Part shown: piece by piece, positions 1 through 52,483 of the stretch
Layout: each line of letters starts with the position of its first letter
Position numbering within the stretch: the stretch's first letter is position 1
Origin: a virus
DNA length: 64,000 nucleotides
Virus record (IMG/VR): IMGVR_UViG_3300007775_000001
Span: 50,951-114,950 of that record
Reading direction: 5' to 3' (one strand)
The notes under the pieces: generated by a model
Databases searched by the model: none
What the model was told of the DNA's origin: nothing
The model's input: the letters and a program-made list of their open reading frames with translations, nothing else
Made by a program: the position numbers and the translations under genes

Positions 1-272
1 GGCATACGGTCATTCCGATGTGTCGGTCGAAGAGGTGCCACGGGCAATTTTCGCTGCAACAGCGAGCACAACACGCCACTTTGGTCATATCGGTATCAGC
101 ATTCATCCGGAGAGTGGAAGAGCCTTTGTCCGGATCACGCTGAGATGGTATGCTCGATGGAATTGGATCGTGTTGAGATGGCTTCTGAAGCGAAAGAGAG
201 AGCGTTGGTTGAACCGGGCTGAAACACGATGCAGGATGGTTGTACCTAACGGAATCCGTTTGGTCGTGTACT

Positions 273-650
273 ATGGCAAGCGTAAAATCGAAGACGAGTA
301 ATTTGTTTCTTCAGATGCTCGTAACTATCAGGAAGGATCGTACCTACTTCCCGAAGGTCATTGATCAGTTCTGGGAACTGAACCATGAGCATCGCATCGC
401 CCTGGTCAGGTATCTGATGGATCAGGTAGGCAAGGAATCGTGGAAAGAATGGGCCGCCGATCCGACTCAGCATGTAGAGATCATCAAAGCGTTGTTGATG
501 GCATACACGGGTCGCAAGGAACTCGATGAGCCGTCGCGCATTGATTTGGCAAAGCTGATCGGTGGCTATACTCAGACCAAGGAGTATCGCGAGATTGAGA
601 TATCGCTTTCTTCTTCTGTGAACGTCACAGAAGCTTTGGAGAACTTGTGA
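273..650 (+). CDS. hypothetical protein
   Basis: ORF in tightly packed + strand run; start moved to ATG 273; stop overlaps next start. Confidence 0.6.
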   Translation: MASVKSKTSNLFLQMLVTIRKDRTYFPKVIDQFWELNHEHRIALVRYLMDQVGKESWKEWAADPTQHVEIIKALLMAYTGRKELDEPSRIDLAKLIGGYTQTKEYREIEISLSSSVNVTEALENL

Positions 651-5744: not shown

Positions 5745-5767
5745 GGGCTCTCTCTCCCCTGCCACGA

Positions 5768-5803
5768 GAGCACTCAGGAGAAATTCTGAGTGCTCTTTTT
5801 TTT
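5768..5803 (+). terminator. Rho-independent terminator
   Basis: GAGCACTCAG/CTGAGTGCTC stem followed by T8. Confidence 0.9.
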
Positions 5804-5806
5804 GCC

Positions 5807-5864
5807 TTGACATCATGTAGTACATGTAGTACACTGTAACTGTGGCTGAGAGAGAAACCCTGAA
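5807..5864 (+). promoter_or_regulatory. early sigma70 promoter cassette
   Basis: TTGACA-17-TACACT with leader GTGGCTGAGAGAGAAACCCTGAA, repeated elsewhere. Confidence 0.8.
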
Positions 5865-7153: not shown

Positions 7154-7708
7154 ATGAAGCAAGAATTGACATTGCGACACTATTTGAAGAGTGTCTCTCA
7201 GCTTGAGAAAGACGAGGAGGTACTTCAAGCTTTGGCCGATGCGGTTATGGGTCTGGAGGCCCATCAGTTTCTTGTCTTCATGGCGCGAGTGAAGGATACC
7301 GTCAAGACGGATGCAGGATACCGCGAATTTATCTCGTCGCTCTTCGGGGGCAAGCGCAAGGTCAATCCGCGCGACGTGACCATCTATATCAAAATAGATG
7401 GTGCGCATGAGACCACTCATAACAAGATCAGTGCGATAAAGCATTGTCGTGCAGTGACGTATGGCGAGAACATGGGTTTGGTCTGTGATCCTGACAGGAT
7501 GGGTCTAAGGGAGGCCAAAGACCTCGTGGAAGCGTCGAAGATGGGTGAGGTCAAGGTCGTTCGGCTTTCTGGCAAGGGAGCCAAAGAGGCTTCCGTCCAG
7601 TTTGCGAACAATATCATGGCGTGTGGATATGACGTTCGCGTCGAGGGTGGGGACGAGGAGTATGAGAGCGAAGTCGATGACTTCATTGCGGAGCTAAAGG
7701 CACTCTGA
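7154..7708 (+). CDS. ribosomal protein bL12 (L7/L12)-like protein
   Basis: KISAIKHCRAVT...MGLREAKDLVEA matches bL12 CTD K..VIK.VR..TGLGLKEAKDLVE. Confidence 0.7.
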   Translation: MKQELTLRHYLKSVSQLEKDEEVLQALADAVMGLEAHQFLVFMARVKDTVKTDAGYREFISSLFGGKRKVNPRDVTIYIKIDGAHETTHNKISAIKHCRAVTYGENMGLVCDPDRMGLREAKDLVEASKMGEVKVVRLSGKGAKEASVQFANNIMACGYDVRVEGGDEEYESEVDDFIAELKAL

Positions 7709-8067
7709 TGACACGAGAAGAAAACGACAAGCGGGAACGCCAGATCAGATGTGTACGTAAGATGCTGGTCACCCTAGACCAGTTGTTGACTAGGAATACG
7801 TTCGATCAGGCTGAGAAGCATTACTATGGCCGCAAGAATGAGATTGTTGGCGGTGGCAACAACAGTATTTTTACGGGTTTGCGCAACGCTGCGTTTAGTG
7901 GTCAGCCATTCTACAAGTTCTCAGACGGTCAGACTGAGGTGGCTTATGACTATCTGGATGAACGATTGGTGCTCGTGAATCCCAGCAAGCCTGACATGGA
8001 AGAGCGTCTGAAGAGAGACGGGGCCATGTTCGTTCCGCTCGTGGAACTGATCAAGAAGTCGAGCTAG
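7708..8067 (+). CDS. hypothetical protein
   Basis: Coupled ORF (TGATG overlap). Confidence 0.65.
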   Translation: MTREENDKRERQIRCVRKMLVTLDQLLTRNTFDQAEKHYYGRKNEIVGGGNNSIFTGLRNAAFSGQPFYKFSDGQTEVAYDYLDERLVLVNPSKPDMEERLKRDGAMFVPLVELIKKSS

Positions 8068-8082
8068 TTTCTACGTAGAAAC
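8067..8082. repeat. dispersed 16-bp palindrome, copy 2
   Basis: AGTTTCTACGTAGAAACT at gene junction. Confidence 0.95.
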
Positions 8083-8084
8083 TC

Positions 8085-9083
8085 ATGAGCAAGAAACAAC
8101 CACGTATGGGCAAGAGCCTGAAAGAAGCCCTGGACAAGAAGGTGCGTGACCAAGCTATGATCGCCGTCATGGATCATGACTTGGGTGGCGATATGTCGGA
8201 TGCTTTTCGGTATTTGCTCAAGCCCATGATAGAGATTCCGGAGAAGAAACCCAAGGAGAATAAGCCTGTTCCTCCTCTTGTTCCTATTGTGGTCGTGGCT
8301 GTGATGATGGAAGAGATGCCCATTGACAATCACGGTGGGCATGCGTGGGGCTTCAGGTCGGTTGTGCGTCATTTTGGTCAGGGGAGCAATAACGCTCGTA
8401 CATACGCTGAAGACGATCTGTCGTTGGTGTGGAGAATCGAAGGTGAGGTTTATTATCAATCGTGGGAGTACCATCAAGCTCTTGGCTACGCGATGAACTA
8501 CGTAGCTCAGAAGTTTGGTGCAAAGCGATACGAGCTACGAGTTGTGGGGCCGATGAAGTCCATGGAAAGTCTTTATCCATATCTGCATTGGGACTCTCTC
8601 CCCGTGTCTGCCAAGAGTTTCACATTGAACTGTTCTGGGATCGGTGACTGGCCTGCATTCAATAACTTCGCCATGAAGGAGTTGGGTTGGAAGAAGCATG
8701 AGGTCAGTGACTTCGTGACCAATCCACCACGGTTTCCTGTGGCTTTGTTGACCACGAGAACCCTTGATTCTGCATTTGTCTATGCTGCGAAGCTATTGAA
8801 GGTCAAGGGCACTGCCCATCTGATGACCGATCAGGTTGCTTCTCGTCTGCCTGGACATCCGCAATCGGAGCGTGACAAGTACACCTACCAGGAAGGCGGA
8901 ATTACAGACGAGAAGGGAATCCGTCAAGCCGTCGTGTTACGGAGACAGTGGTCGGTTTGGCGTCGTGAGTTGGCGTCTGGCAAAGTGACTCTGAAGGAGA
9001 TCGAGAAGATCATCGAAATCAACAATGGGATCGATGACCGCGAGACAGAGACCGATATGCTCAAAGAGCTAGGGAGTCTGTGA
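8085..9083 (+). CDS. hypothetical protein with degenerate bL12-CTD-like region and DxxxELxxL C-terminus
   Basis: 332-aa ORF ending TDMLKELGSL. Confidence 0.7.
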   Translation: MSKKQPRMGKSLKEALDKKVRDQAMIAVMDHDLGGDMSDAFRYLLKPMIEIPEKKPKENKPVPPLVPIVVVAVMMEEMPIDNHGGHAWGFRSVVRHFGQGSNNARTYAEDDLSLVWRIEGEVYYQSWEYHQALGYAMNYVAQKFGAKRYELRVVGPMKSMESLYPYLHWDSLPVSAKSFTLNCSGIGDWPAFNNFAMKELGWKKHEVSDFVTNPPRFPVALLTTRTLDSAFVYAAKLLKVKGTAHLMTDQVASRLPGHPQSERDKYTYQEGGITDEKGIRQAVVLRRQWSVWRRELASGKVTLKEIEKIIEINNGIDDRETETDMLKELGSL

Positions 9084-9084
9084 C

Positions 9085-9396
9085 ATGGTCTTTGGAATGA
9101 GAGACGCGGTTGAAAAGGAAACGAGAGACATGGCTGCTCATGAGCCGATCTTGATGAGTTCTTACATCGTGCGTCTCATTGAGGCGTATAGTGATCATCC
9201 GGCGGCGGCTGCCCAAACCATAAGCGATTTGAGATGTGCATTGGATGCTCAGTTGGCTATGGAGCTTTGGTTATTACGAGATGGATACGATTCGGCAACC
9301 GGAATCAAGCTCGATCTGAAAACGGGCAAGCCGGTCGCTGCACCAAGAAGAGGGCCAACAGCAATTGACATCCTAGCGGAGCTTGATCAGCTATGA
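9085..9396 (+). CDS. hypothetical protein with DxxxELxxL C-terminus
   Basis: Coupled ORF ending IDILAELDQL. Confidence 0.65.
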   Translation: MVFGMRDAVEKETRDMAAHEPILMSSYIVRLIEAYSDHPAAAAQTISDLRCALDAQLAMELWLLRDGYDSATGIKLDLKTGKPVAAPRRGPTAIDILAELDQL

Positions 9397-9908
9397 GCAT
9401 GAGAATCTATGACCACTACGAGTGGAAGAGGAATCTGAACTCTCTGTTTGCCTTCTGTATCGAGCTACGCAAGAAGGAGCATGCTCGTCTGAAGGCTGAG
9501 TTCATGAAGATGACCAAGGAGCAACGCGGCAAGCTGTACGATGAAACCCATGATCGAAGGAATTTCATGCAGCGTGGGTCGTGGGAGTTCGATACGAGCA
9601 TCATGATCTACCCGTATGGGCAGCGACTGTTCTTCGGGTTGTTCGGCTTCAACTACAGCAATCCGATCCTGGAGACAGTGCAGCAAGATTCGCGGGTGGT
9701 GGACTTCCATTATCAGAATCAGTCAGATCGTCCAGACCATATCTCTCCGCAAGAGTGGCGTGCGCGTCGAAGGGTGTGGGACAAGATCGGTGAGCGAAGT
9801 CATGTTTTCGCTGAGATGGGCTTGTCCTTCCAGGTCACAAGTCTGGACACGGCAACGATCATGCTCATCATGTGTGCCCACGAGGAGAACCAATGCAACG
9901 AGAACTGA
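9393..9908 (+). CDS. hypothetical protein
   Basis: Coupled ORF (ATGA overlap). Confidence 0.7.
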   Translation: MSMRIYDHYEWKRNLNSLFAFCIELRKKEHARLKAEFMKMTKEQRGKLYDETHDRRNFMQRGSWEFDTSIMIYPYGQRLFFGLFGFNYSNPILETVQQDSRVVDFHYQNQSDRPDHISPQEWRARRRVWDKIGERSHVFAEMGLSFQVTSLDTATIMLIMCAHEENQCNEN

Positions 9909-10159
9909 CCATCCGGTATCACATCAATCAGGATGGGCTCGATGTGATGTTCGAGTTGGAAGATCGGATCATCGCTGCAATCGAGCCGTACGGTTGCAAG
10001 ATGGTGAGTGCAGGTACGATGGTGGTGGGTCGTTGGAACCGGGGTTTTCAGGTACGCGGTGACGGTGTAGAATTGGCACTCGCGAAGATCACGGAAATCA
10101 TGAAGACCGCGCGTGTTGAATTCGGTCACGAGTGGCGAGACATTCAAGAGGGGTCATGA
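9893..10159 (+). CDS. hypothetical protein
   Basis: GAGGAG RBS before ATG 9893. Confidence 0.55.
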   Translation: MQRELTIRYHINQDGLDVMFELEDRIIAAIEPYGCKMVSAGTMVVGRWNRGFQVRGDGVELALAKITEIMKTARVEFGHEWRDIQEGS

Positions 10160-10354
10160 ATAACAAGGAATTGTGGGTCGAGGTCGGAAAGACAGTGTGG
10201 TGGTTTATCATGGTTATTCCCGCTCTGCTCTTGTTGTTCGCTGTGGCTGCTCTGGCTGATGTGGTTGAGAAGTGGGTCAACACCAACAGTGTGTGCAGGC
10301 TATACAGGGTGATCATCCCATTCCCTGGGTGGATGAAACGAGACATGAGGCGGT

Positions 10355-10756
10355 ATGTTGATCGGAATCGTGGGAAGTAGATCGATCACTGACTACACGC
10401 TCTTCAAAGAAGAGCTTGAGAAGGTCATGGTGCCAGACCCCAAGCAGGACATGATTGTGTCTGGTGGGGCAAATGGGATAGACTCGCTGGCAGAGCAGTA
10501 TGCACGAGCGCACGGAATCCAACCGGTGATTCTGCCCGCCTTGTGGGACAACTTCGGCAAGGGGGCGGGAAAGATCAGGAACAGTAACGTGGTGAAGGTG
10601 GCACACATCATCATCGCATTCTGGGATCAGGAGTCACCGGGAACCAAGGACACGATTGATAAGGCTAAAGCCAATGGGAACCTTTTCGAAGTCATCCGAC
10701 TCAGACCAGGGCAAACAAGCGAGAACTCGATTGCGTGTGGTGAGTTCTTCGAGTAG
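10355..10756 (+). CDS. SLOG-family (DUF2493/YspA-like) nucleotide-binding protein
   Basis: IGIVGSR...IVSGGANGIDSLAEQYA...AGKIRN..V...IAFWD..SPGTKDTI. Confidence 0.85.
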   Translation: MLIGIVGSRSITDYTLFKEELEKVMVPDPKQDMIVSGGANGIDSLAEQYARAHGIQPVILPALWDNFGKGAGKIRNSNVVKVAHIIIAFWDQESPGTKDTIDKAKANGNLFEVIRLRPGQTSENSIACGEFFE

Positions 10757-11012
10757 ATTGCTCAAGATCAACTGGTGGTTCAGGCTGAAGAGCTGGGTCG
10801 GGTTCTGGATCGGTGAGCTAATCGCTCTGGTGCTGATCGTTGTTATCTTCTTCGGTAGTGTGGTTGCAGCGGTGGCGATAGCTCTATGGATGTTGCTGGC
10901 GATGGCTCTATGGATGTTGCTGGCGTTCCTGTTCGCGAATCCAAGGGGTATAGCATTCATGATCATCGCTCTGGCAATCGCCTACTGGATCATCACGCAC
11001 TGAGTGTGAATC

Positions 11013-11876
11013 ATGGCGATGCATAACGATTTTCGAGACGATTTTCGAGACGAGGAGCGCAAGGCCAAGGAAGACAAGGTCAGCACTCTTGCCAGAGATG
11101 CACTGGATAAGGCGCACGAGATCATTGCCAAAACGGCAGCGATCACGGACGAGAAATTCCAGGAGGAGATCAAAAAACTGGCGAAAAAGAAAGCTCTGAA
11201 ACGTTTGAAATTCAAGTTGAAGCCGCATGGCAACTACGGTGTATTGGGGGGTGTGCTCTATCCAAACCAGGATGGTAGTGGTCAGGAGTCACACTTCAAG
11301 TTTTTCGATTCGCATCTGAGTAGGCTGATCGGGAAGATGATGGCGGCGATCACTTACGATTGGTATCCATCCTTTGTGAGTGACAAGGAGATACCGGATC
11401 ATCATCACTTCACACTATATCCAATCGAGATCGACACAAGCGAGTTGGAAGGCAGACTGTGCAACGTGGTAGTGTATAGGTTTGGTCTGGAGCGAGTGAA
11501 TGGCAAGCATGACGAGTTTGTGTCGAATGCGCTGGATGGAACCTATACCAAAGAGAACAGCCAGATCGTGCGGTTCAATGGGTACTCACGGCATCGGGTG
11601 ATCAACAGACAGGCGTTACTCGATCACATTCGGGAAGAAGAGCGTGAGCAAATCCTGAATGTGAAGCGGTACTATCAAAGCCTTGACGCGCGGAACGGTT
11701 GGTCGTTGCATCACAATGTACCGTATAGCAAGAGCTTGGCGCGTTATGTAGAGCAACTGAGACGGTTGTGTGAGGAGGGGGATATCGAGATCGTATTCAA
11801 CTCTGCATTGGCGCCTAGCACGGAACCAGAGTCCGAAAAGGGGCCTGACTTCATCGAGGAGTTGAGCAAGCTGTGA
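11013..11876 (+). CDS. hypothetical protein with DxxxELxxL C-terminus
   Basis: 287-aa ORF ending PDFIEELSKL. Confidence 0.7.
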   Translation: MAMHNDFRDDFRDEERKAKEDKVSTLARDALDKAHEIIAKTAAITDEKFQEEIKKLAKKKALKRLKFKLKPHGNYGVLGGVLYPNQDGSGQESHFKFFDSHLSRLIGKMMAAITYDWYPSFVSDKEIPDHHHFTLYPIEIDTSELEGRLCNVVVYRFGLERVNGKHDEFVSNALDGTYTKENSQIVRFNGYSRHRVINRQALLDHIREEEREQILNVKRYYQSLDARNGWSLHHNVPYSKSLARYVEQLRRLCEEGDIEIVFNSALAPSTEPESEKGPDFIEELSKL

Positions 11877-12107
11877 AAGTGCGTGGTCATTGCTATCGAT
11901 GCGACAAACCCATCAATGGATCGACCCAGATGATAGAACCAAAAGATTGCTGGGAATGCCAAGTCCGAATGAAATGGTGGTGGTGGCTCCTGGAGCTTGT
12001 TTGGGTTCTGCTAGTGTTGGGTACTTGTACCTATATAGTCTTTTGGTTAGGCCATAGTGGGTTGTGGTATCTTTTTGCCCTTCTTTTGTGTGGATCGTCC
12101 CACGACC

Positions 12108-13295
12108 ATGAGAAACAACAGCACTGCTGAAGAAGCCAAGTTCAAGCAGTACCAGGATGAGAACTTCGGTGAGGTTGCATCCTGGGTGATGCGATCACGG
12201 ATCGATGGTGCTACGGAGATGTTCTTAACGGACATCTATGGCAACAAGAAGGAGATCATCACGCTACCCGATGGCAAGAAGATCATTCGACAAACAGAGT
12301 ATGTGAAGATGGAATCGATTACTCAGAAGTCAGCCAAAGTAGCCAAGAAGCGCAATCAGAAAGAGGCACCTAAGTTCTCTTCATCAGAGTTCAAGCGTGC
12401 TGTCTTGCCTACGATCAAGCCACGGAAGGATAAAATCTTCCCGTTGACCAAGAATGATAAGTGGGAAGCGGTAGCGTACTCTCCTGATTCGCCTGAAGCG
12501 ATCCAAGATGAGCGTCAAAACAGTCGCAAGGATTTGAAAGCTCGCATTCAAGCGATGGATCGTGTCATCAAGAAGCAGATCGTGGAGAGAGACAAGCTTG
12601 CGCAAGAGCTACATGACGTGGGCAAAAACGAAGAGGGTGTCAATGCTCAGTTGTCGAAACTGCTGGGCAATGCTCGCGTGTCTCAACTGACGGTGGGGGC
12701 GGCACATCCTTATGTTGACCCGCCAAGCGACATGAACACGGATGATAAGCTTCCGTGTCCCATGATGTTCTTTCATGCCGATGATCAGGTTTCGGTGTAT
12801 GCTCACTCGTTGGAGAGTGCGTATGGTTTGGCTGTGATGGTGGCACTGGTTAACGAGTTCAGTGAAGGTGAAGTGGTTGAAGATAAGGAAGACCTGTCTA
12901 ATTGGGATCAGGTGAATGCGCGGGCTGCTATCTCGCTTGCTAATACGGGGCTGAAGAAGTTGGCTGAGATGTCTGTCGCGGTATACGTGTGGGGCGTCCA
13001 ATGCTCTCATGGGATGTTCATTCCGATCATTCAGAAGTGTTTCGGTGACCTGGATGACTTCGATCAGATGTACTACAGAAATACATTGGAGCACCAAAAG
13101 TTTCCCGTGGTCGTTTATCGGGGGGCTTTGACTTCTCGTGTGCTTAAGGCTCGTGTGGTGATGGCGTCCTTTGGGATCGATGCGGAGATTCTGTTGTCTG
13201 GTCATGAGCGTCGTTCCTACCCCGATCCTGTGAAACGAAAGGAGTACAAGCGGGTCGAAGAAGGCGACATCATGAGGGAGTTGAACGAGCTATGA
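12108..13295 (+). CDS. hypothetical protein with degenerate bL12-CTD-like region and DxxxELxxL C-terminus
   Basis: Long ORF, start uncertain, ending GDIMRELNEL. Confidence 0.7.
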   Translation: MRNNSTAEEAKFKQYQDENFGEVASWVMRSRIDGATEMFLTDIYGNKKEIITLPDGKKIIRQTEYVKMESITQKSAKVAKKRNQKEAPKFSSSEFKRAVLPTIKPRKDKIFPLTKNDKWEAVAYSPDSPEAIQDERQNSRKDLKARIQAMDRVIKKQIVERDKLAQELHDVGKNEEGVNAQLSKLLGNARVSQLTVGAAHPYVDPPSDMNTDDKLPCPMMFFHADDQVSVYAHSLESAYGLAVMVALVNEFSEGEVVEDKEDLSNWDQVNARAAISLANTGLKKLAEMSVAVYVWGVQCSHGMFIPIIQKCFGDLDDFDQMYYRNTLEHQKFPVVVYRGALTSRVLKARVVMASFGIDAEILLSGHERRSYPDPVKRKEYKRVEEGDIMRELNEL

Positions 13296-13503: not shown

Positions 13504-13561
13504 TTGACATTGTGTAGCACATGTAATACACTATAACTGTGGCTGAGAGAGAAACCCTGAA
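13504..13561 (+). promoter_or_regulatory. early sigma70 promoter cassette
   Basis: TTGACA-17-TACACT with GTGGCTGAGAGAGAAACCCTGAA, near-identical to 5807. Confidence 0.8.
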
Positions 13562-15456: not shown

Positions 15457-15804
15457 ATGTCTGGAAAGATAGCTAAACGCACGTCACAGCGGGTCGAGTA
15501 TTGGGCCTTTGTGAAGTATCCGAATCACTTTTGCTTGCCTGAAGAGGCTCGCACGCTGAGCACGCCAACCATGTTCTCAGTGGAGATCAGTCATGTGAAT
15601 CTGTATAAGCGGGAAGTGACTGTACGCACAGGTGATGTGTATGAGTTGGGTCAACCGTCTGACGAGTACGCGAAATGGCTCGTCGAGTATAGCGCGAAAT
15701 TTCGGTCGTGGTCTTTTCAGCTTAAGGAGTGGATCGAAGAGGCAAAGAGTGATGTGTTGGCAGAGATCGAATCTTTGGGAGAGACCGAAGAACCGCCATT
15801 TTGA
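15457..15804 (+). CDS. hypothetical protein
   Basis: Closely spaced ORF; DVLAEIESL near C-terminus. Confidence 0.55.
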   Translation: MSGKIAKRTSQRVEYWAFVKYPNHFCLPEEARTLSTPTMFSVEISHVNLYKREVTVRTGDVYELGQPSDEYAKWLVEYSAKFRSWSFQLKEWIEEAKSDVLAEIESLGETEEPPF

Positions 15805-16604: not shown

Positions 16605-16675
16605 CCTCCTATAGCCAAGAGGAAAGGCGACTGGCTGCAACCCAGTGATCACTGGTTCGAATCCAGTTGGGAGGT
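16605..16675 (+). tRNA. tRNA-Cys(GCA)
   Basis: Cloverleaf; anticodon loop CT-GCA-AC; GTTCGAATC. Confidence 0.9.
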
Positions 16676-16905
16676 CTGATGAAAGACGTGCCAAGATTCA
16701 AGCCTGTGGCTTGGGTCGTGAACAGCGAGAGCCAAAAGCTATCGCTAACTCATCTGATGCACGAGGGGAGAATCCTGTGTACGGTCAAACTTCCTACCGA
16801 TCCTACTGTGCAGATTGTGACGCGCGGTCGGGTGGATTGCTTCAACTGTGTGAAGCGGGGTCGGAGTCTGCAAGGAAGAAACGTCGAGACAGGTAAACCC
16901 TATGA

Positions 16906-16978
16906 TGCCCCGTAACTCAACTGGTAGAGTACCCGGCTCTTAACCGGGAGGTTGCAGGTTCGAAGCCTGTCGGGGCAA
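16906..16978 (+). tRNA. tRNA-Lys(CTT)
   Basis: Cloverleaf; CT-CTT-AA. Confidence 0.9.
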
Positions 16979-16987
16979 TCAGTTCAT

Positions 16988-17058
16988 TGCTCCGTAGCTC
17001 ATCGGTCGAGCGTCCGGCTTTTAACCGGAAGGCTGGGGTTCAACTCCCCACGGGGCAA
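16988..17058 (+). tRNA. tRNA-Lys(TTT)
   Basis: Cloverleaf; CT-TTT-AA. Confidence 0.85.
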
Positions 17059-17064
17059 CTATAT

Positions 17065-17140
17065 ACCGGGATGGACTGGAGTGGTTCCAGCGCGAGACTC
17101 ATAATCTCGACCGACGTGGGTTCGAATCCCACTCCCGGCA
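17065..17140 (+). tRNA. tRNA-Met(CAT), initiator-like 1:72 mismatch
   Basis: CT-CAT-AA; A1:C72 mismatch. Confidence 0.8.
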
Positions 17141-17144
17141 CTAC

Positions 17145-17227
17145 GGAAGGATGGCCGAGAGGCTGAAGGCTCCTGTTTTGAAAACAGGCGTGCGAGAGCA
17201 CCGGGGGTTCGAATCCCTCTCCTTCCG
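17145..17227 (+). tRNA. tRNA-Ser(TGA)
   Basis: Class II cloverleaf; TT-TGA-AA. Confidence 0.9.
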
Positions 17228-17232
17228 CTTAC

Positions 17233-17307
17233 ACACCGGTAGCTCAGTCTGGATAGAGCGGGGGCCTTCGAAGCCCATGGTCGCGGGTTCGAATCCTGCC
17301 CGGTGTG
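17233..17307 (+). tRNA. tRNA-Arg(TCG)
   Basis: CT-TCG-AA. Confidence 0.9.
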
Positions 17308-17391
17308 CTGACCGCACCAAGAACCAACAGAGGAGATTGATCATGTTGCGTGATACTGGCGCGGTGTTGTGGTGGGTCGTAGTGGGTGTAT

Positions 17392-17474
17392 GGAAGCGTG
17401 GCTGAGCGGACAAAAGCACCTGTTTCGAAAACAGGCGGACGCAAGTCCCGAAGGTTCGAATCCTTCCGCTTCCG
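17392..17474 (+). tRNA. tRNA-Ser(CGA)
   Basis: Class II; TT-CGA-AA. Confidence 0.9.
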
Positions 17475-17479
17475 TTACC

Positions 17480-17562
17480 GGGGAGTTGGCTGAGTGGTCT
17501 AAAGCACTGCGTTGGAATCGCAGCGGACGTAAGTCCCGTAGGTTCGAATCCTACACTCTCCG
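17480..17562 (+). tRNA. tRNA-Ser(GGA)
   Basis: Class II; TT-GGA-AT. Confidence 0.9.
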
Positions 17563-17565
17563 CTT

Positions 17566-17651
17566 GGAAGGATGGCTGAGTGGCCGAAAGCACCGCATTG
17601 CTAACGCGGCGGACGCAAGTCCCGTGAGTTCGAATCTCACTCCTTCCGCCA
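17566..17651 (+). tRNA. tRNA-Ser(GCT)
   Basis: Class II; TT-GCT-AA; encoded CCA. Confidence 0.9.
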
Positions 17652-17667
17652 ATTTCTACGTAGAAAC
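17652..17667. repeat. dispersed 16-bp palindrome, copy 3 (1 mismatch)
   Basis: ATTTCTACGTAGAAAC immediately after tRNA CCA. Confidence 0.9.
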
Positions 17668-17684
17668 TGATTGAGAGGTTGACT

Positions 17685-18194
17685 ATGCATGTTCGCAATG
17701 CAGTATGTAACGCGATTCAAGATTGTGTCGATCACAAGGAAGGCAAGTTCAGTGAGTCTGCGAATCTGAGAGATGATCTTGGTGTGGATTCACTTGATAT
17801 CGTGGAGATCGTGATGCAGGTTGAAGAGGAATTGGGTATCATGATCGAAGATGACCAGTTCAGCAACCTGATGACTGTAGGAGAGTTGATGCGTGTCGTT
17901 GAGAAGGCGACAGGCTATCGGAAGAGGGGTGTGAGCGATACGATTGAAGTCCTTGTGGTTGGACATGCAAGTTTGGTGGCACGCGAAGCTTCTCGTCGCA
18001 AGATTCCCTTTGTGTTCTTGCGCGAGATTCGCGGAAAGGTGAATGGTCTCGAAGGCCCAACTGTGCATACGGTTGGGAAGGTCAATCAGGTTTTCCGTGA
18101 CGATGTTGAAAAGTGGGAGAAGGAGAGTTGTCAGACATGGGCCGGGATTCATATCCCTGGGTCATTGGTGCAGATCAGTAACAAGCCCTTGTAG
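17685..18194 (+). CDS. acpP: acyl carrier protein fused to an unknown C-terminal domain
   Basis: DDLGVDSLDIVEIVMQVEEELGI.IED......TVGEL; DSL phosphopantetheine serine. Confidence 0.85.
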   Translation: MHVRNAVCNAIQDCVDHKEGKFSESANLRDDLGVDSLDIVEIVMQVEEELGIMIEDDQFSNLMTVGELMRVVEKATGYRKRGVSDTIEVLVVGHASLVAREASRRKIPFVFLREIRGKVNGLEGPTVHTVGKVNQVFRDDVEKWEKESCQTWAGIHIPGSLVQISNKPL

Positions 18195-18258
18195 CTCAGC
18201 TAGGCAGAGCGGCTGTTTTGTAAACAGCGGGTCGGCGGTTCGATTCCGTCCAGGGGCT
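18185..18258 (+). tRNA. tRNA-Thr(TGT)
   Basis: TT-TGT-AA. Confidence 0.9.
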
Positions 18259-18259
18259 C

Positions 18260-18330
18260 TTAGGGATCGTCTAGTGGTAGGACGCTGGGCTCTGAACTCA
18301 GAAACCTTGGTTCGAATCCAAGTCCCTAAA
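18260..18330 (+). tRNA. tRNA-Gln(CTG)
   Basis: CT-CTG-AA. Confidence 0.9.
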
Positions 18331-18331
18331 C

Positions 18332-18405
18332 CTGGGTGTAGCTCTTAACGGTAGAGCGCGTGCTTTGGGAGCATGAGGCTGCTGGTTCGAATCCAGTCAC
18401 CCAGA
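18332..18405 (+). tRNA. tRNA-Pro(TGG)
   Basis: TT-TGG-GA. Confidence 0.9.
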
Positions 18406-18411
18406 CTACAT

Positions 18412-18485
18412 GGCGTGGGTAGCCAAGCGGTTAAGGCAGAAGGCTGTGAACCTTCCATGCATGGGTTCGAATCCCATCCCTCGCC
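18412..18485 (+). tRNA. tRNA-His(GTG)
   Basis: CT-GTG-AA; G-1 and C73. Confidence 0.9.
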
Positions 18486-18693
18486 CTGGAGGCACACCAA
18501 TGATCAGTTTGATGTTACCGAATGCTTCGCGTTCAGAAGTGATTGCGGTGAGTCGAATGGTTGCGCGCATGAAGGTCGGAATGCATGTCACACGGGCGAG
18601 AGACGCAGTGTGCGATCATTCGCAATGGAGTTGGGATACCCATGGTCGGGTGTGTGACTGTGGGGCGTTCATGGTTGATTTCGGAGATTGACG

Positions 18694-19062
18694 ATGGGCC
18701 ACAAAGAGAAGCTGATCAAAGTGAACGCTCTGATTGACGAGGGCGTTATCCCGCTTGTGGAAGCATTGAATGAGCTTCCCCGCGTGGTGACTTACAATAG
18801 CTGCGAGCAGTACAACGGTAAGGCAGAGGTGATGTTTCATATCATCGAGCCTGAGCGTGGAGAAGAGCCACGATTCGTGCGTGATCTGTCGAAGCAAATT
18901 GCTCGCATCAACGGAGATTTTGCTGTATGCTTGAGTCTTGAATGGTTTGCTGGAGGTGATGCGTCGATGTGGCTTCGTGTCCCTACTGAGCAAGTCGAGG
19001 TGGTAGCGAGCGCGATCAGACTGATTGCTACGGAGAGAAAAAGGAATGCCTCTCAAGAATAA
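18694..19062 (+). CDS. hypothetical protein with TYW3-like N-terminal motif
   Basis: IDEGVIPLVEALNEL..VVTYNSCE. Confidence 0.55.
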   Translation: MGHKEKLIKVNALIDEGVIPLVEALNELPRVVTYNSCEQYNGKAEVMFHIIEPERGEEPRFVRDLSKQIARINGDFAVCLSLEWFAGGDASMWLRVPTEQVEVVASAIRLIATERKRNASQE

Positions 19063-19429
19063 GACCCAACCGATCTATCTAACACCGGATTGGAGATTCT
19101 ACCAGGACGGTAACAACTTTGTGCTTGAGCACAAGGAGCGGGTCAGGAAGAAGGATGGTATCAACATGGCCGAGCGATGGTCGCAATTTTTTTACTCGTC
19201 GCTCGAAGCTGCTGTGCCAGGGCTGCTTAGTCGTGATATCATGGCTGGCAGAACTCTGGAGGAAATGAAGACTCGTCTTGAGGAGACGGCTCAACGGATC
19301 ATCTCTGTTCTTCGGGGTGCTCCTAATTTTGGTGTAGCACAGCGGTTGGCAGATGTGGGTGAGTCAGACCCGAATGTCACGGCTGTACCTCGAAGGCGGT
19401 TTTTTCGGCGCAACCGCCAAGCAACCTAA
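19046..19429 (+). CDS. hypothetical protein
   Basis: GGAG RBS; overlaps upstream gene end. Confidence 0.6.
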   Translation: MPLKNKTQPIYLTPDWRFYQDGNNFVLEHKERVRKKDGINMAERWSQFFYSSLEAAVPGLLSRDIMAGRTLEEMKTRLEETAQRIISVLRGAPNFGVAQRLADVGESDPNVTAVPRRRFFRRNRQAT

Positions 19430-19466
19430 CCAAAGCGTCGATTCTCTCTGTCGGAGTTAGAACCCG

Positions 19467-19622
19467 ATGAGTAACACACAGCAAGTCAACATGAAGGATC
19501 ACGTCGAATCGCTGATCAAGAAGGCAGCAACGGCGGCAAGAGCGGACGAGGCGATGAAGTTCTCGCAAGCTGCAACCAATGCCGCGAATGCGATGTGTGC
19601 ATTGCGAGAGGCGATGAAATAG
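19467..19622 (+). CDS. small hypothetical protein (51 aa, absent from ORF track)
   Basis: GGAG RBS; MSNTQQVNMKDHVESLIKKAATAARADEAMKFSQAATNAANAMCALREAMK; followed by GC hairpin 19630-19656. Confidence 0.6.
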   Translation: MSNTQQVNMKDHVESLIKKAATAARADEAMKFSQAATNAANAMCALREAMK

Positions 19623-19659
19623 AACGGTGGCGGGCGGGATGAGTCTCGCCCGCTTTCAT

Positions 19660-19732
19660 GTTGCGATAGCTCAGTCCGGTAGAGCGGTGGGTTGAAGCCC
19701 CATATGCAGAGGTTCGATTCCTCTTCGCAACA
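19660..19732 (+). tRNA. tRNA-Phe(GAA)
   Basis: TT-GAA-GC. Confidence 0.9.
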
Positions 19733-19733
19733 C

Positions 19734-19762
19734 TTGACAAACGGTAGCACATGTAGTACAGT
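19734..19762 (+). promoter_or_regulatory. sigma70 promoter sharing the cassette spacer
   Basis: TTGACA-17-TACAGT with GTAGCACATGTAGTACA. Confidence 0.65.
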
Positions 19763-19798
19763 ACAAGAGCGGTGGATATCTTGTGGAGGAAGTGATTC

Positions 19799-19886
19799 GG
19801 GGATGTGCGTCAAGTGGCGAAGACAGCGGACTGTAAATCCGTGACCCATGCGGTAAACATCGAAGGTTCGACTCCTTCCGTCCCCA
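19799..19886 (+). tRNA. tRNA-Tyr(GTA)
   Basis: Class II; CT-GTA-AA. Confidence 0.9.
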
Positions 19887-19907
19887 CTGACAACGTGATG
19901 AGCTATC

Positions 19908-20339
19908 ATGCCGATTAAGATCGGGCGGTTCCAGGGTGAGTACAGGTTCCTGAGCAATTTTTGGCCTGCTCGTGTGAACTACGGAGGGATAGACTTCCCC
20001 ACCGTAGAACATGCCTATCAGGCTGCCAAAACGGACGATCAGAAGGCTCGTTTGGAGATTGCCAAGGCCCGTACTCCTGGGGTGGCAAAACGCCTTGGGA
20101 AGCGTGTTACGATGCGTCATAATTGGGATAGCATCAAGCTCAAGGTGATGAGTGTTCTGGTGACACAGAAGTTCACGAGCAATCCGCTTCTGAAGAAGCT
20201 TTTGCTTGACACCGGAGATGCGGAACTGATAGAAGGGAACGATTGGAATGACACCTTCTGGGGTATCTGTCGTGGGAAGGGTAGCAACCATCTGGGCAAG
20301 ATTTTGATGAGTGTTCGCGAATCGCTCAGATTGGTATGA
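19908..20339 (+). CDS. NADAR family protein (YbiA-like)
   Basis: FLSNF...FPTVEHAYQAAK...AKRLGK...W...M...KF...LLDTGDAELIEGN.W.D.FWG...G.N.LGKILM.VR. Confidence 0.92.
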   Translation: MPIKIGRFQGEYRFLSNFWPARVNYGGIDFPTVEHAYQAAKTDDQKARLEIAKARTPGVAKRLGKRVTMRHNWDSIKLKVMSVLVTQKFTSNPLLKKLLLDTGDAELIEGNDWNDTFWGICRGKGSNHLGKILMSVRESLRLV

Positions 20340-20340
20340 T

Positions 20341-20413
20341 GTGGGTCTAACTCAACTGGTAGAGTGTCGGCCTTCCAAGCCGGATGTTGCGGGTTCGACT
20401 CCCGTGGCCCACT
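20341..20413 (+). tRNA. tRNA-Gly(TCC)
   Basis: CT-TCC-AA. Confidence 0.9.
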
Positions 20414-20482
20414 TAGGCAGATTGCGAGACTGGTGTGATTCGCTCCATTGTGACTGAGAGTGTCACCGTGATCTGCCTTCAT

Positions 20483-20557
20483 GGGGTATGGGACTGCTAG
20501 GGGTGGTCATCTGCCTTGCAAGCAGAACACAGCCCGGTTCGAATCCGGGATACTCCA
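20483..20557 (+). tRNA. tRNA-Ala(TGC)
   Basis: CT-TGC-AA; G3:U70. Confidence 0.85.
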
Positions 20558-20560
20558 TTG

Positions 20561-20646
20561 GCCCGTTTGTGCTAGGTAGAGACAACGAGATCAGCTAACC
20601 ACTGATCAAGCGGCTTGCCAAGGTGGTTCCTTGGTGCTGGCGGGCA
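20561..20646 (+). ncRNA. degenerate tRNA-like element
   Basis: 7-bp acceptor-like stem, D-loop-like GCTAGGTAGAG, GATCAG/CTGATC arm with 7-nt loop, CCAAGG/CCTTGG arm lacking TTCGA. Confidence 0.4.
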
Positions 20647-20653
20647 TTGTAAT

Positions 20654-20733
20654 GCCGATGTGGTGAAACTGGCAGACACGTCACCTTGAGGGGGTGATGC
20701 TTCGGCGTACAGGTTCGAGTCCTGTCATCGGCA
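20654..20733 (+). tRNA. tRNA-Leu(GAG)
   Basis: Class II; TT-GAG-GG. Confidence 0.9.
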
Positions 20734-20735
20734 CT

Positions 20736-20930
20736 GTAGGGAGTAGGGCACGGGGAGTTGTCTACGCTGTGAAAGCTGGTGATCGATCAATCGCCGGTGA
20801 GGGTTGAATGGTTAAGACCGGAAACCCAAGTAGCAGCTATCGAGGCGTACCCCACGGTTAGGCCTAGTAACTGCGCGAAGCGACCAGAATGCCGAGCATG
20901 AACGGGGGTTCGGGACTTCTCGTTTCCTAC
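20736..20930 (+). ncRNA. candidate ~195-nt structured RNA
   Basis: Terminal pairings GTAGG/CCTAC and ACGGGGAGT/ACTTCTCGT with several internal stems; no ORF. Confidence 0.45.
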
Positions 20931-20937
20931 TTCTGAC

Positions 20938-21279
20938 ATGGAACACAAAGAGCTATTCAACGCGATTAAGGCTCTGTATAGTGAAGAGCCATACGTGACT
21001 CAGCATGAGATTGCGGTAGCTCTGAATCAAATGAAGGTACGGCCAATTGGTGCGAGACAATGGACAGCGTCAACCGTATCGTTGTTCATGGTGCATCATG
21101 GGTGCGTGAGACGGAAGCTGCACAGGGCTTTCGAATGGCGGCGGCCTTCACAGATCGGTTGTAGACAATGCATTGAGCAGGGCGTAGAGTACGATACCAA
21201 ACAACTTGCTCCATGGATCAGAATCGCCATAGAGCGCGGGAAATTGAGGTTGAGAGATGAGAATCCATACACGGCGTGA
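20938..21279 (+). CDS. hypothetical protein with recombinase-type DNA-binding motif
   Basis: EIAVALNQMKVRPIGARQWTASTV resembles the IA..LN..G......W....V recombinase motif. Confidence 0.5.
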   Translation: MEHKELFNAIKALYSEEPYVTQHEIAVALNQMKVRPIGARQWTASTVSLFMVHHGCVRRKLHRAFEWRRPSQIGCRQCIEQGVEYDTKQLAPWIRIAIERGKLRLRDENPYTA

Positions 21280-21302
21280 AGAGATGGAGAGCGAGGAGAT
21301 GC

Positions 21303-21378
21303 GCTCCCATCGTCTAGTGGTCTAGGATATCAGACTTTCAATCTGATGACACGGGTTCGAATCCCGTTGGGAGTACCA
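21303..21378 (+). tRNA. tRNA-Glu(TTC)
   Basis: CT-TTC-AA; encoded CCA. Confidence 0.9.
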
Positions 21379-21462
21379 CATGTTCAAGAAGCACGATTGG
21401 GTTCTGGTGGTTGTTGTTGGAGCATTGTGTGCTGCTGTCATGTGGGTGTGGTTGTTCTAGCT

Positions 21463-21538
21463 ACCCTTGTGGCGGAACTGGTAGACGCGCTACGTTCAGA
21501 CCGTAGTTGTATTGGGAGTTCGAGTCTCCCCAAGGGTA
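21463..21538 (+). tRNA. tRNA-Leu(CAG), short variable arm
   Basis: TT-CAG-AC. Confidence 0.85.
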
Positions 21539-21541
21539 TTT

Positions 21542-21617
21542 GCCTCTGTGGCCTAGTCTGGTTCAGGGCAACAGGTTGTCAACCTGGAGATCACGGGTTC
21601 GAATCCCGTCAGGGGCG
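21542..21617 (+). tRNA. tRNA-Asp(GTC)
   Basis: TT-GTC-AA. Confidence 0.9.
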
Positions 21618-21622
21618 TACAC

Positions 21623-21696
21623 AGGTCGGTAGCTCAGCTAGGTAGAGCGGCGGCTTCCAAACCCGCTGGTCGAGGGTTCGAATCCTTCCCGGCCTG
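21623..21696 (+). tRNA. tRNA-Trp(CCA)
   Basis: TT-CCA-AA. Confidence 0.88.
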
Positions 21697-21716
21697 CTTT
21701 CAAAAGGAGATTGACC

Positions 21717-21929
21717 ATGAAAATCAGTGTTGATGCATTCGAAGATGCTGTGACCCGATGGAAGCAGAGTGGCGCACGAGACGGAACGCATCAACGCCTG
21801 GGTCAATACTTGATGAACGTCTTCTTTGCTCATCAGCCGGGGATTTCTGTTCCTGGAATTTTCTACGAGGAAGACTGGAAGAAGGCGTACGCAATGTTCA
21901 GGGAGCGGTTTGTCGATAACCAACTCTGA
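21717..21929 (+). CDS. hypothetical protein
   Basis: AAGGAG RBS; QRLGQYLMN motif. Confidence 0.6.
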   Translation: MKISVDAFEDAVTRWKQSGARDGTHQRLGQYLMNVFFAHQPGISVPGIFYEEDWKKAYAMFRERFVDNQL

Positions 21930-21991
21930 CTTCCTCTTCAGGAACAGTTGCAAGACTTGAAAGAGAAGCTGATAGAGGAGATGAAGATCAT

Positions 21992-22063
21992 TGCTCCGTA
22001 GCTCAGGGGTAGAGCGGTGGTTTTACAAGCCGCTGGTCGTAGGTTCGAATCCTACCGGGGCAA
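21992..22063 (+). tRNA. tRNA-Val(TAC)
   Basis: TT-TAC-AA. Confidence 0.9.
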
Positions 22064-22079
22064 CTAGGTTGTGCAATCA

Positions 22080-22153
22080 GGGCTGGTAGCTCAATCGGTC
22101 AGAGCGGCTGACTCATAATCAGAAGGCTGCTGGTTCGAGTCCAGCCCAGCCCA
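22080..22153 (+). tRNA. tRNA-CAT (Ile2 or elongator Met)
   Basis: CT-CAT-AA; GGGCT start as in Ile2. Confidence 0.85.
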
Positions 22154-22156
22154 TAT

Positions 22157-22230
22157 TGGACAGTAGCTCAGTCGGTTAGAGCGCGATCCTGATACGGTCG
22201 AGGTCGAAGGTTCGATTCCTTCCTGTCCAA
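22157..22230 (+). tRNA. tRNA-Ile(GAT)
   Basis: CT-GAT-AC. Confidence 0.9.
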
Positions 22231-22305
22231 CTGACGATCCGATTTGGTAGCGTTGATGCTCCATAGACGTTCTGGGTCGAGATCAGTTGTACTTTAATAT
22301 GGAGC

Positions 22306-22429
22306 ATGATGGTGGCGTATCAACGCATGCGGTGAAGCCGTGCGAGTAACTGTTGGCGCGCATGACAGGAATCGACGGAAGAAACTGCCGTGGCGAGTCC
22401 CCGGAGTGATAACCGGGCGTCACCATCAT
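22306..22429 (+). ncRNA. candidate oversized cloverleaf-like RNA
   Basis: 12-bp closing stem ATGATGGTGGCG/CGTCACCATCAT enclosing four hairpins. Confidence 0.45.
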
Positions 22430-22431
22430 CT

Positions 22432-22504
22432 GTGGATGTAGCTCAATCGGCAGAGCGTCACGTTGCCAACGTGAAGGTTGTGGGATCGTTGCCCATCATC
22501 CACT
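22432..22504 (+). tRNA. tRNA-Gly(GCC)
   Basis: TT-GCC-AA; atypical T loop (GATCGTTG). Confidence 0.85.
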
Positions 22505-22509
22505 TGCAC

Positions 22510-22582
22510 TGTCCTGTAGCTTAGTCGGTAGAGCGAGTGCCTGTTAAGCACTTTGTCGTTGGTTCGAGCCCAACCAGGACAG
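22510..22582 (+). tRNA. tRNA-Asn(GTT)
   Basis: CT-GTT-AA. Confidence 0.9.
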
Positions 22583-22604
22583 CTAAATCTAAAAGAGACC
22601 AACC

Positions 22605-23276
22605 ATGACCATGCGGGACTGTGACATTCATGCGGCAATCGAAGCCGGTGAGCTTTCAATTGATCCGTACGATCCGGATTCCGTAGGGCCTGCATCAATC
22701 GATCTGACTCTGAGTGTTTATTTCATGAGGGTGGATGGTCAGGGTACGGGTGGGGTGATCAGAATGGATCAACCCATCGAGTACGAGAAGTTTACTCGCC
22801 AGCGTGTGATTATCCCTCCGAAGTCCTTCATTCTTGCTAGTACCATCGAGCGTGTTACTCTTCCCGCTGATATCTGTGCAAAGGTCGAGGGTCGATCATC
22901 TATCGGTCGTATGGGTCTGTTTGTACAGAATGCTGGATGGGTTGATCCTGGTTGGGATGGGTGTCTGACTCTGGAACTGTACAACGCCAACGAGTTCCCC
23001 ATCGAGATCGTTGCTGGTCGCCGGATTTGTCAATTGGTGTTGGATCGTATGACCGGCCCGGTTGACAAGCCCTATGCTGGAAAGTACAAGGGCGATGGAT
23101 CGGTAGCAGGTAGTCGTATCTACAAGGATTGGGAAGCGTTGCTTGATGACTGCGAAATCTGCAATGGAGAGTTAGGCGGGGTCAAGGGAAATGAGAACGT
23201 CATTCATGGCAAGAAGGTCTGTGACTACTGTTATGCGAAGATGATGCGAGGAGAGATTCTGTACCCCGAAGGTTGA
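22605..23276 (+). CDS. dcd: dCTP deaminase with C-terminal CxxC-CxxC extension
   Basis: PASIDLTL, EGRSSIGRMGL, AGWVDPGWDG.LTLEL, RICQL, Y.GKY. Confidence 0.93.
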   Translation: MTMRDCDIHAAIEAGELSIDPYDPDSVGPASIDLTLSVYFMRVDGQGTGGVIRMDQPIEYEKFTRQRVIIPPKSFILASTIERVTLPADICAKVEGRSSIGRMGLFVQNAGWVDPGWDGCLTLELYNANEFPIEIVAGRRICQLVLDRMTGPVDKPYAGKYKGDGSVAGSRIYKDWEALLDDCEICNGELGGVKGNENVIHGKKVCDYCYAKMMRGEILYPEG

Positions 23277-23283
23277 CAAATCT

Positions 23284-23364
23284 GCCCGCGTGGTGGAATC
23301 TGGTAGACACAACAGGCTCAAACCCTGTGGCTTCGGCGTCCCGGTTCGAATCCGGGCGCGGGTA
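23284..23364 (+). tRNA. tRNA-Leu(CAA)
   Basis: Class II; CT-CAA-AC. Confidence 0.9.
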
Positions 23365-23444
23365 TTTTTTTGGCTTGAGTTGAGAGAATTGTCCGTCAAT
23401 GTCAGAGAACGTTGATACATCAGGATACACCAAGAGGAATCACG

Positions 23445-25110: not shown

Positions 25111-25452
25111 ATGGACGCCAAGATCATTGCAATCTGGAATCAATCTTGCCTGCGGGCGGGGGAGCAATGCCGCGCCTGTGAAGACCGGAAACTGTCGCAG
25201 TCATACCCATTGTACGACGTGACCTTGTATCTGTACACGGAGCCGCGCCAAGTCGTGAGCTATGCTCGTGCTCTGTTCCGGCGCTCCCGCAAGAGCGAGC
25301 ATCGCGACAACGGCGTCTATCTGCGGGCCGTCGCCCGGAACCTGATACGTGGCCTCGACTTTCCCGACGATCTTGACGGCCTGGAAACCGTCAATCTTTA
25401 TGGGTCTCCCGTACCTATCACGCCGGACGATTGTGTGCGGTTGGATCGCTAA
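25111..25452 (+). CDS. hypothetical protein
   Basis: GAGG RBS. Confidence 0.55.
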   Translation: MDAKIIAIWNQSCLRAGEQCRACEDRKLSQSYPLYDVTLYLYTEPRQVVSYARALFRRSRKSEHRDNGVYLRAVARNLIRGLDFPDDLDGLETVNLYGSPVPITPDDCVRLDR

Positions 25453-25472
25453 CCCCAGCGGAGCGGGAGTCG

Positions 25473-25488
25473 GTTTCTACGTAGAAAC
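25473..25488. repeat. dispersed 16-bp palindrome, copy 4
   Basis: GTTTCTACGTAGAAAC, intergenic. Confidence 0.95.
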
Positions 25489-51468: not shown

Positions 51469-51477
51469 ATTGAACTG

Positions 51478-51505
51478 AGCCTCTAGGGATAACACCCTAG
51501 AGGCT
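51478..51505 (+). terminator. hairpin after major capsid gene
   Basis: AGCCTCTAGGG/CCCTAGAGGCT; weak U tail. Confidence 0.5.
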
Positions 51506-51527
51506 TCACCACGATTGGGAGATGATC

Positions 51528-51902: not shown

Positions 51903-51907
51903 TCGCC

Positions 51908-52249: not shown

Positions 52250-52258
52250 GTTGACCCC

Positions 52259-52480: not shown

Positions 52481-52483
52481 CCC

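Follow-up and report, generated by a model that had tools for sequence, protein, structure and literature searches.

A C-terminal nonapeptide resembling the gp32-type SSB tip recurs on unrelated proteins of an uncultured phage and its relatives

The DNA analysed here is a stretch of 64,000 nucleotides, referred to as the window, which corresponds to positions 50951–114950 of IMG/VR record IMGVR_UViG_3300007775_000001, the 114,950-bp record of an uncultured soil phage with direct terminal repeats. Coordinates are those of the window unless they are marked as genome coordinates. Five genes on the plus strand of the window encode proteins that end in a similar nonapeptide, hereafter called the tag. 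The first is a 184-aa protein (7154..7708) that ends in DFIAELKAL (codons 7679–7705) after an acidic linker. Orphan proteins of 332 aa (8085..9083), 103 aa (9085..9396) and 287 aa (11013..11876) end in DMLKELGSL (9054–9080), DILAELDQL (9367–9393) and DFIEELSKL (11847–11873), respectively, and a 412-aa open reading frame (ORF; 12057..13295, 395 aa from the ATG at 12108) ends in DIMRELNEL (13266–13292). These five C-termini had been reported in an earlier note on this DNA and all of them were confirmed at their places, together with two near-matches on the same strand. One is a degenerate tail, NVTEALENL, at the end of a 136-aa protein that belongs to a family named here p136 (240..650), and the other is a subterminal DVLAEIESL (15751–15777) in a 115-aa protein (15457..15804), where it is followed by GETEEPPF. 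The five proteins of the earlier note were real but undercounted the set, as the scan of the whole genome gave about ten tails. The further ones are DILAELANI (genome 17244–17621), DFMSDLQDI (genome 21168–21410), DVMEELKAL (genome 29103–29354), DILAELKDI (genome 37585–37848) and a weaker TFLDMLEDI (genome 17681–18592). All of them are on genes of the plus strand, which carries nearly all the phage genes, and none was found among 495 ORFs of the minus strand.

The tags have hydrophobic residues at positions 2, 3, 6 and 9, which would share one face of a helix, and a Pro, Gly or Ser cap in front. The sequence upstream is usually a hydrophilic stretch rich in D, E, P, G and S, with Pro or Gly 2–4 residues before position 1. 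Searches of the carriers against Pfam, PHROGs, NCBIfam and PDB sequences returned nothing above threshold that would indicate a function. The earlier note had described one carrier as a homologue of bL12, which received weak support: residues 71–167 of the 7154..7708 protein are like the bL12 C-terminal domain or ClpS at the level of fold (ESM Atlas), and the Pfam match to the bL12 C-terminal domain did not reach the threshold (E 0.007; 17 bits, where the cut-off is 25.9). The homologue search with the 12057..13295 carrier gave one fragment only, which was 84% identical and had an identical tail.

The frequency of the tag was evaluated with the strict pattern D-[FILMV]-[FILMV]-x-E-[LIVM]-x-x-[LI]. 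It occurred eight times in 36,344 residues, of which seven were at the extreme C-terminus and one was subterminal, and the number expected at C-termini was 0.0014 by shuffling and 0.0017 analytically. The motif is therefore real and terminal, and its frequency is far above the shuffled background, as the earlier note had supposed. The codons used by the copies varied at every position, for example GAC or GAT for Asp1, CTT, CTA, CTG or TTG for Leu6, and CTG, CTC, CTA or ATT for the last residue, and the DNA downstream of the tails also differed between copies. Thus, the repeat lies in the protein and not in the DNA, and the selection acts on the protein. When the last 12 residues were removed, no pair of carriers within one genome matched at E<0.1, in agreement with the claim that the carriers are unrelated. 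The stop codon TGA ends 9 of 11 tagged genes, which was not significant in comparison with other early genes (p=0.09).

The relatives of this phage were collected by a scan with its DnaE-type polymerase, which gave a clade with polymerases 50–55% identical; single-protein scans with the 332-aa carrier or Rad50 did not find relatives. The set examined comprised the complete genomes G000 (this phage), G001 and G009 and the fragments G002, G006, G008, L006 and L116–L119. The complete relatives have 9 to 17 tagged proteins each, and the tag is written in a dialect that differs from genome to genome. The dialect is D-h-h-x-E-L-x-x-[LI] in G000 (h, hydrophobic), x-F-M-x-[DE]-L-x-x-[IL] in G001 (9 proteins), [SA]-F-L-x-A-L-x-x-I with one extra residue in G006 and [DE]-F-x-x-A-L-K-x-L in G009 (17 proteins by a Phe-anchored pattern, counting real genes), and it is mixed in G008. 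The densest array seen is that of G009 (L132), where 12 tagged genes within 49.6–57.8 kb all end in F-x-x-A/G-L-x-x-L, and 8 of these 12 (50450–52902) are small genes arranged back to back. With a loose pattern, G000 and G001 gave 9 tails apiece and G009 about 9, where shuffling gave 0.3–0.4. As a control, the Phe-anchored pattern matched 7 of 3,665 ORFs in 70 loci of distant DnaE phages (about 30% DnaE identity), mostly hydrophobic noise, and no tags near DnaE were found in these 70 loci. The tag is therefore specific to the clade and not general to DnaE phages.

Most of the carriers are not orthologous between genomes, and four families of orthologous carriers retain the tail at about 30% identity of the body, so the tag is both portable, having moved among unrelated proteins, and conserved. 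The conservation of tails in orthologues, on which the earlier note had made its proposal depend, was thereby established. The four families are p136, a WGR-like protein (p125), DUF6744 and a small protein encoded after the terminase. The orthologues of p136 end in DFKSELEAI, SFGSMMEEI, SFKEELEAL and EFKEGLESL, and the tail of DUF6744 is retained even in the distant relative G010. A profile search with DUF6744 added little. In a model of DUF6744 made with an alignment (pLDDT 84), the tag forms a separate and confident helix of residues 293–302, and the model had no fold match in the PDB.

The tag is like the C-terminal tip of the gp32-type single-stranded DNA-binding protein (SSB). The gp32-like SSB of this phage ends in AELNAELKALGIE, and AELKAL is common to this tip and the 7154..7708 carrier. 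The SSBs of G001, G002, G006 and G009 end like the SSB of this phage. A search of 1.8 billion representative proteins gave 204 relatives; about 40 representative clusters end in [DE]-[LIV]-[ED]-x-E-L-[KR]-x-L-G-[VI], and more distant gp32-like SSBs end in D-[LI]-D-x-L-L-x-x-L, which we take to be the type of the T4 gp32 tip as well. In an alignment of 16 sequences just 14 columns were invariant, and these included E, L, L and G of the tip. A matrix was then built from the about 40 foreign tips only, that is, from the SSBs of other phages. With this matrix, the eight clearest tags took the top 8 places among the 183 C-termini of G000. Over 34,963 nine-mers, the phage's own SSB tip was best, the tag of the 7154 carrier second and that of the gene at genome 29103 fifth. 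The matrix also picked tags in G001 and G009, and 8 of 3,665 ORFs in the control loci scored at least 4.

The likeness extends to the design of the tail, as the gp32-type tip is a terminal acidic amphipathic helix that follows a disordered acidic linker, and the tags, with the same spacing [DE]-h-x-x-E-L-x-x-L, conform both to the consensus [DE]-[LIV]-x-x-E-L-x-x-L and to the place at the extreme C-terminus. The proteins that bear them differ. The tip is on an OB-fold, zinc-binding SSB, whereas the tags are on carriers outside the gp32 and SSB families, to which only the SSBs themselves matched. Similarly, T4 gp32 has one tail with many readers, whereas many unrelated proteins carry the tail in this phage. 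In T4, UvsX, UvsY, Dda and gp59 all dock on the acidic C-terminal domain of gp32 (PMC3016280), and a helix from this domain occupies a hydrophobic Dda groove, where it is flanked by a salt bridge (PMC11551737). Outside the clade, a scan of IMG/VR with a degenerate DNA pattern for the tag led to the same kind of protein. It gave 18 stretches, 4 inside the clade and 14 outside. Eleven of the latter have no ORF ending there. Of the remaining three, two are copies of a single hydrophobic ORF of 33 residues, identical on two contigs, and were taken as chance. The third is a 361-aa gp32-like SSB of an unrelated phage, with the end ...DDFMKELEGI. An amidoligase of the same phage ends in DVFDELHRV; both genes, SSB and Amidoligase_2, are on the minus strand of a high-G+C phage fragment (L111/L112 of G005, 21062–22330 and 25141–26226). 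Within the window, the EEPPF end of the 15457..15804 protein resembles the bacterial SSB tip in its acidic run and Pro-Phe, and this protein, with its subterminal tag, may mimic the SSB tails of phage and host at once. The ends ...MPF and ...VPF also occur on some gp32-like SSBs among the search relatives.

Replication and recombination machinery that would suit such a tail is encoded by the phage. Besides the gp32-like SSB, it has a DnaE-type polymerase, a primase and a DnaB-like helicase, a RecA/UvsX-like recombinase and Mre11/Rad50-like proteins. A UvsW-like helicase with ResIII, Helicase_C and UvsW_N domains (L002:12473–13822) is the sole clear gene on the minus strand and lies where the late and early regions meet. 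Directly after DnaE, just before the window, is a gene for a conserved 158-aa helical-hairpin protein (L005:6244–6717; genome 42244–42720). It has no Pfam family; the ten best fold matches of its model (pLDDT 81) in the PDB were all chains of T4 UvsY, from four entries (TM 0.55–0.69; E about 0.03), so that it is probably, though not provenly, UvsY-like. A 356-aa ORF after DnaE was considered as a clamp and rejected, being a poorly modelled orphan. Some relatives have much longer forms of two of these proteins, with DnaE of 1,425 against 1,087 aa and UvsX of 656 or 493 against 323 aa (L009:10001–14311; G002 34700–36670; L118:5090–6571), which suggests inteins or other insertions.

Among the other features, a sigma-70-like promoter match, TTGACA-17-TACACT (5807..5835, plus strand), follows a terminator-like hairpin (5766–5797) and is possibly the start of a unit that holds the five tagged genes. 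A second, identical match on the plus strand (13504..13532) is just 3' of the last of them. Such matches are to the consensus only and their number was no higher than in shuffled sequences. Between the tagged genes is a gene for a 133-aa YspA/SLOG (DprA-like) protein (10355–10756; Pfam E 3e-10, PHROG 289). An N6/N4 DNA methylase domain is encoded at 2095–2856, and its homologue in G001 comes after the terminase and adjoins a small tagged ORF. An OMP-decarboxylase-like gene (L003:9276–10058) and a gene of the nucleotide-modification family Nmad5 (L003:15307–16008) are hints that this phage has modified nucleotides. At 16605–23365 are 28 clustered tRNA genes, all of them on the plus strand, that cover most amino acids. 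The closest terminases are those of Bacteroides phages at 31% identity, and no cultured phage is close. Near-identical DNA was present in soil metagenome runs from two studies and, for a small part, in a wetland run, and no RNA run was listed among these. The contigs from three soil and wetland runs were at least 99% identical, bar one piece of 36 bases, and showed no variation by which selection on the tails could be tested.

The explanation that we favour, although tentatively, is that the tag is a portable docking helix read by one receptor, likely a T4-like recombination or replication protein that also reads the SSB tail. Because the tag is a close relative of the SSB tip, its receptor is most likely a reader of the SSB tail. 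The tip of the phage's own SSB, which the earlier note did not mention, is the closest relative of the tag and directs attention to replication and recombination, away from the ribosome. The nine residues would be the docking handle, as an acidic amphipathic helix that is capped at its N-terminus by Pro, Gly, Ser or Asp and leaves its C-terminus free. The carriers, mostly small and fast-evolving orphans made with the replication genes, would plug into the same groove of the receptor. Candidates for the receptor would be the UvsY-like mediator, the UvsX-like recombinase, the UvsW-like and DnaB-like helicases, the primase and DnaE. The tagged proteins would be concentrated at SSB-covered DNA or replication forks, or would compete with the SSB there. 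The proposal of the earlier note, a common amphipathic docking helix that recruits its carriers to one hub, fits all the findings as far as a terminal, portable and orthologue-kept tail is concerned, and the docking itself is an inferred step. A wider form of this explanation is possible but doubtful, in which the clade has a tag-and-hub system where a label derived from the SSB tail is carried by 5–10% of phage proteins and orphans join the viral factory for replication and recombination by gaining nine residues. A whole viral interactome would then be organised by the reader, which could be a UvsY/UvsX-type protein, the MoxR-VWA pair described below or another factor.

Several observations weigh against a receptor shared with the SSB. 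The SSB tips are acidic at position 3 and have the G-[VI] extension, whereas the tags are hydrophobic at position 3 and stop at Leu or Ile. The SSB tips are constant across the clade and the tags drift, position 5 being E in G000, D or E in G001 and A in G006 and G009, whereas one shared groove would predict that tip and tag vary together. The helical state, the docking and the docking target are all inferred. In addition, two of the clade-wide tagged families lie in a MoxR-VWA module and not in a recombination module. Acidic amphipathic helices are also common, and the likeness to the SSB could be convergent. A complex prediction, run without controls, in which the 44 C-terminal residues of the 9085 carrier were paired with the cores of the UvsX-like protein and the SSB, scored 0.01 (mark 0.32) and is evidence neither way. 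Mimicry of the N-terminal helix of UvsX was dropped; this helix is loosely tag-like in G001 and G002 and shows no co-variation at position 5 in G000 and G009.

The differences between the tag and the SSB tip, the drift of the tag and the two families in the module together make the MoxR-VWA pair a serious rival as the reader, albeit an unlikely one. According to this alternative, the tags are client peptides of a MoxR (CobS-like) AAA+ ATPase and a VWA (CobT-like) protein, where the VWA metal site would bind the terminal carboxylate or an acidic side chain and the ATPase would remodel or assemble the tagged proteins. The conserved module (L121:5244–11325; genome 17244–23325; also in relatives) consists of the WGR-like p125, DUF6744, a histone-deacetylase-like protein, the putative MoxR and the VWA protein, and in its make-up is like the yeh operon of E. 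coli, where WGR, MoxR and VWA are also grouped. Its CobT-like VWA gene adjoins the putative MoxR gene; both are kept in G001, G002, G008, G009 and G010, and each of the six VWA proteins that were checked has an intact DxSGS metal-site motif. The p125 and DUF6744 proteins, both tagged across the clade, are encoded inside this module, and a third tagged gene is directly upstream of the VWA gene, so that 3 of about 11 tagged genes belong to it. The capture of peptides by a VWA domain with release by MoxR has been proposed (PMC7159879), and in CobT, NorD and CbbO partners are bound through the VWA metal site (bioRxiv 10.64898/2026.10.09.757910). The phage module is comparable with the pairs CobST, NorQD and CbbQO in having a pair with an intact metal site, here with two conserved tagged proteins encoded beside it, and it is without CobN. 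It differs in that those systems are not known to have a defined client motif or to bind a C-terminal helix. Most of the tagged genes, moreover, are elsewhere in the genome. G001 has nine tags and no detectable DUF6744, while G002 and G010 have the module and no canonical tags in the DNA sampled. The acidic position 5 is not conserved, and the likeness to the SSB tip is left unexplained.

Our preferred reading, docking on a reader of the SSB tail, was also weighed against a hub of the host, to which the tags would deliver takeover or anti-defence effectors. The ribosomal stalk, RNA polymerase, the beta clamp, RecA and a protease or unfoldase would be candidates, and we consider this distinctly unlikely. 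The shifts of dialect among relatives of 45–58% G+C suggest different hosts, while the phage SSB tips stay constant, as would suit a reader that changes with the host. The region that encodes the orphan carriers has promoter matches of the host type, one of the carriers has the bL12-CTD/ClpS-like fold described above, and the phage has a DnaE polymerase for which no clamp of its own was found. However, a universal host machine should need no lineage-specific dialects, and the tags have neither a clamp motif of the Gln-Leu-x-Leu-Phe type nor an LAA-type ending. The proposed likeness of the G006 dialect to the N-terminal helix of bacterial RecA and that of the tag to helix 1 of bL12 are tentative. 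None of the hubs named in the earlier note gained support from the tests made. For the clamp, the tags lack the defining Gln and no DnaN/gp45 clamp domain was found in the phage genome, though a clamp of the host could still be the reader.

It is improbable that the tags have no common partner at all, the helices packing on their own proteins or associating with themselves and their likeness being convergent. Amphipathic terminal helices are common, and the confident helix in the DUF6744 model could pack on its own body; but the tag usually comes after a hydrophilic linker rich in Pro and Gly, and the dialect is common to the unrelated proteins of one genome and shifts together between genomes, which is hard to explain without one reader. 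A degron or timer, in which a protease recognises the common non-polar C-terminus and clears the carriers at a set time, is very improbable. In its favour, the motif is confined to the terminus, with Leu or Ile as its last residue, and the carriers are encoded with early and middle genes. Against it, the SSB-like spacing, the acidic face and the N-cap point to a specific groove and not to a generic non-polar end, the long-lived SSB bears a sister motif, and conserved, structural-looking families such as DUF6744 and p136 carry the tag. Ends of the ClpX/ClpA type (Ala-Ala or LAA-like) were not seen among the tails, which end in Leu or Ile after polar residues. Finally, a DNA-level origin, in which a regulatory repeat or the ribosome-binding site of the next gene is translated by chance, was suggested by the recurrence of GAG-CTN at positions 5–6 and by the overlap of several tagged genes with the next start codon, and is refuted by the synonymous variation at every position and the absence of the pattern from other frames and the opposite strand, as well as by the varied downstream contexts (overlapping starts, promoters and spacers) and the retention of the tag in relatives of 37–58% G+C.

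The principle of a shared docking tail is already known from T4 clamp tails, T7 acidic tails and the hubs that read bacterial SSB C-termini. In T7, the tails of gp2.5 (SSB) and gp4 (helicase-primase) on the gp5 polymerase are likewise terminal, common to different proteins, one of them an SSB, and read by one component of the replisome (see also PMC10359462); they differ in having two carriers against ten or more here, and in being an acidic run that ends in Phe and not an amphipathic helix. The T4 tails of gp43, gp33 and gp55 on gp45 and the beta-clamp motifs (QL[SD]LF) also bring unrelated proteins with one short hydrophobic and acidic end to one pocket of a hub. In contrast to the clamp motifs (QL[SD]LF or QLxLxL), no tag begins with Gln or has a Leu-Phe pair, and the spacing is different. 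The bacterial SSB tip (D-D-D-I-P-F), whose free carboxylate is read by pockets of genome-maintenance proteins (PMC7913777, PMC3159472), is similarly a terminal acidic and hydrophobic peptide, but there one tail has many readers, and the tags are without a Pro-Phe end, the EEPPF of the 15457..15804 protein being the only case. As far as our literature search reached, what is new is the scale, the set of carriers and the link to the SSB tip.

In T4 and T7, docking tails are known to be shared by two or three proteins of the replisome, and the literature searched gave no description of genomes in which 10 to 17 unrelated proteins, mostly orphans, have one SSB-like tail. The tag is a simple sequence signature by which functionally linked orphan genes can be recognised in metagenomes. 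If one receptor reads all the tags, a single peptide, usable for pull-down, localisation and competition, would open a class of phage "dark matter" proteins to experiment, and the system would show how new phage genes get wired into existing machinery.

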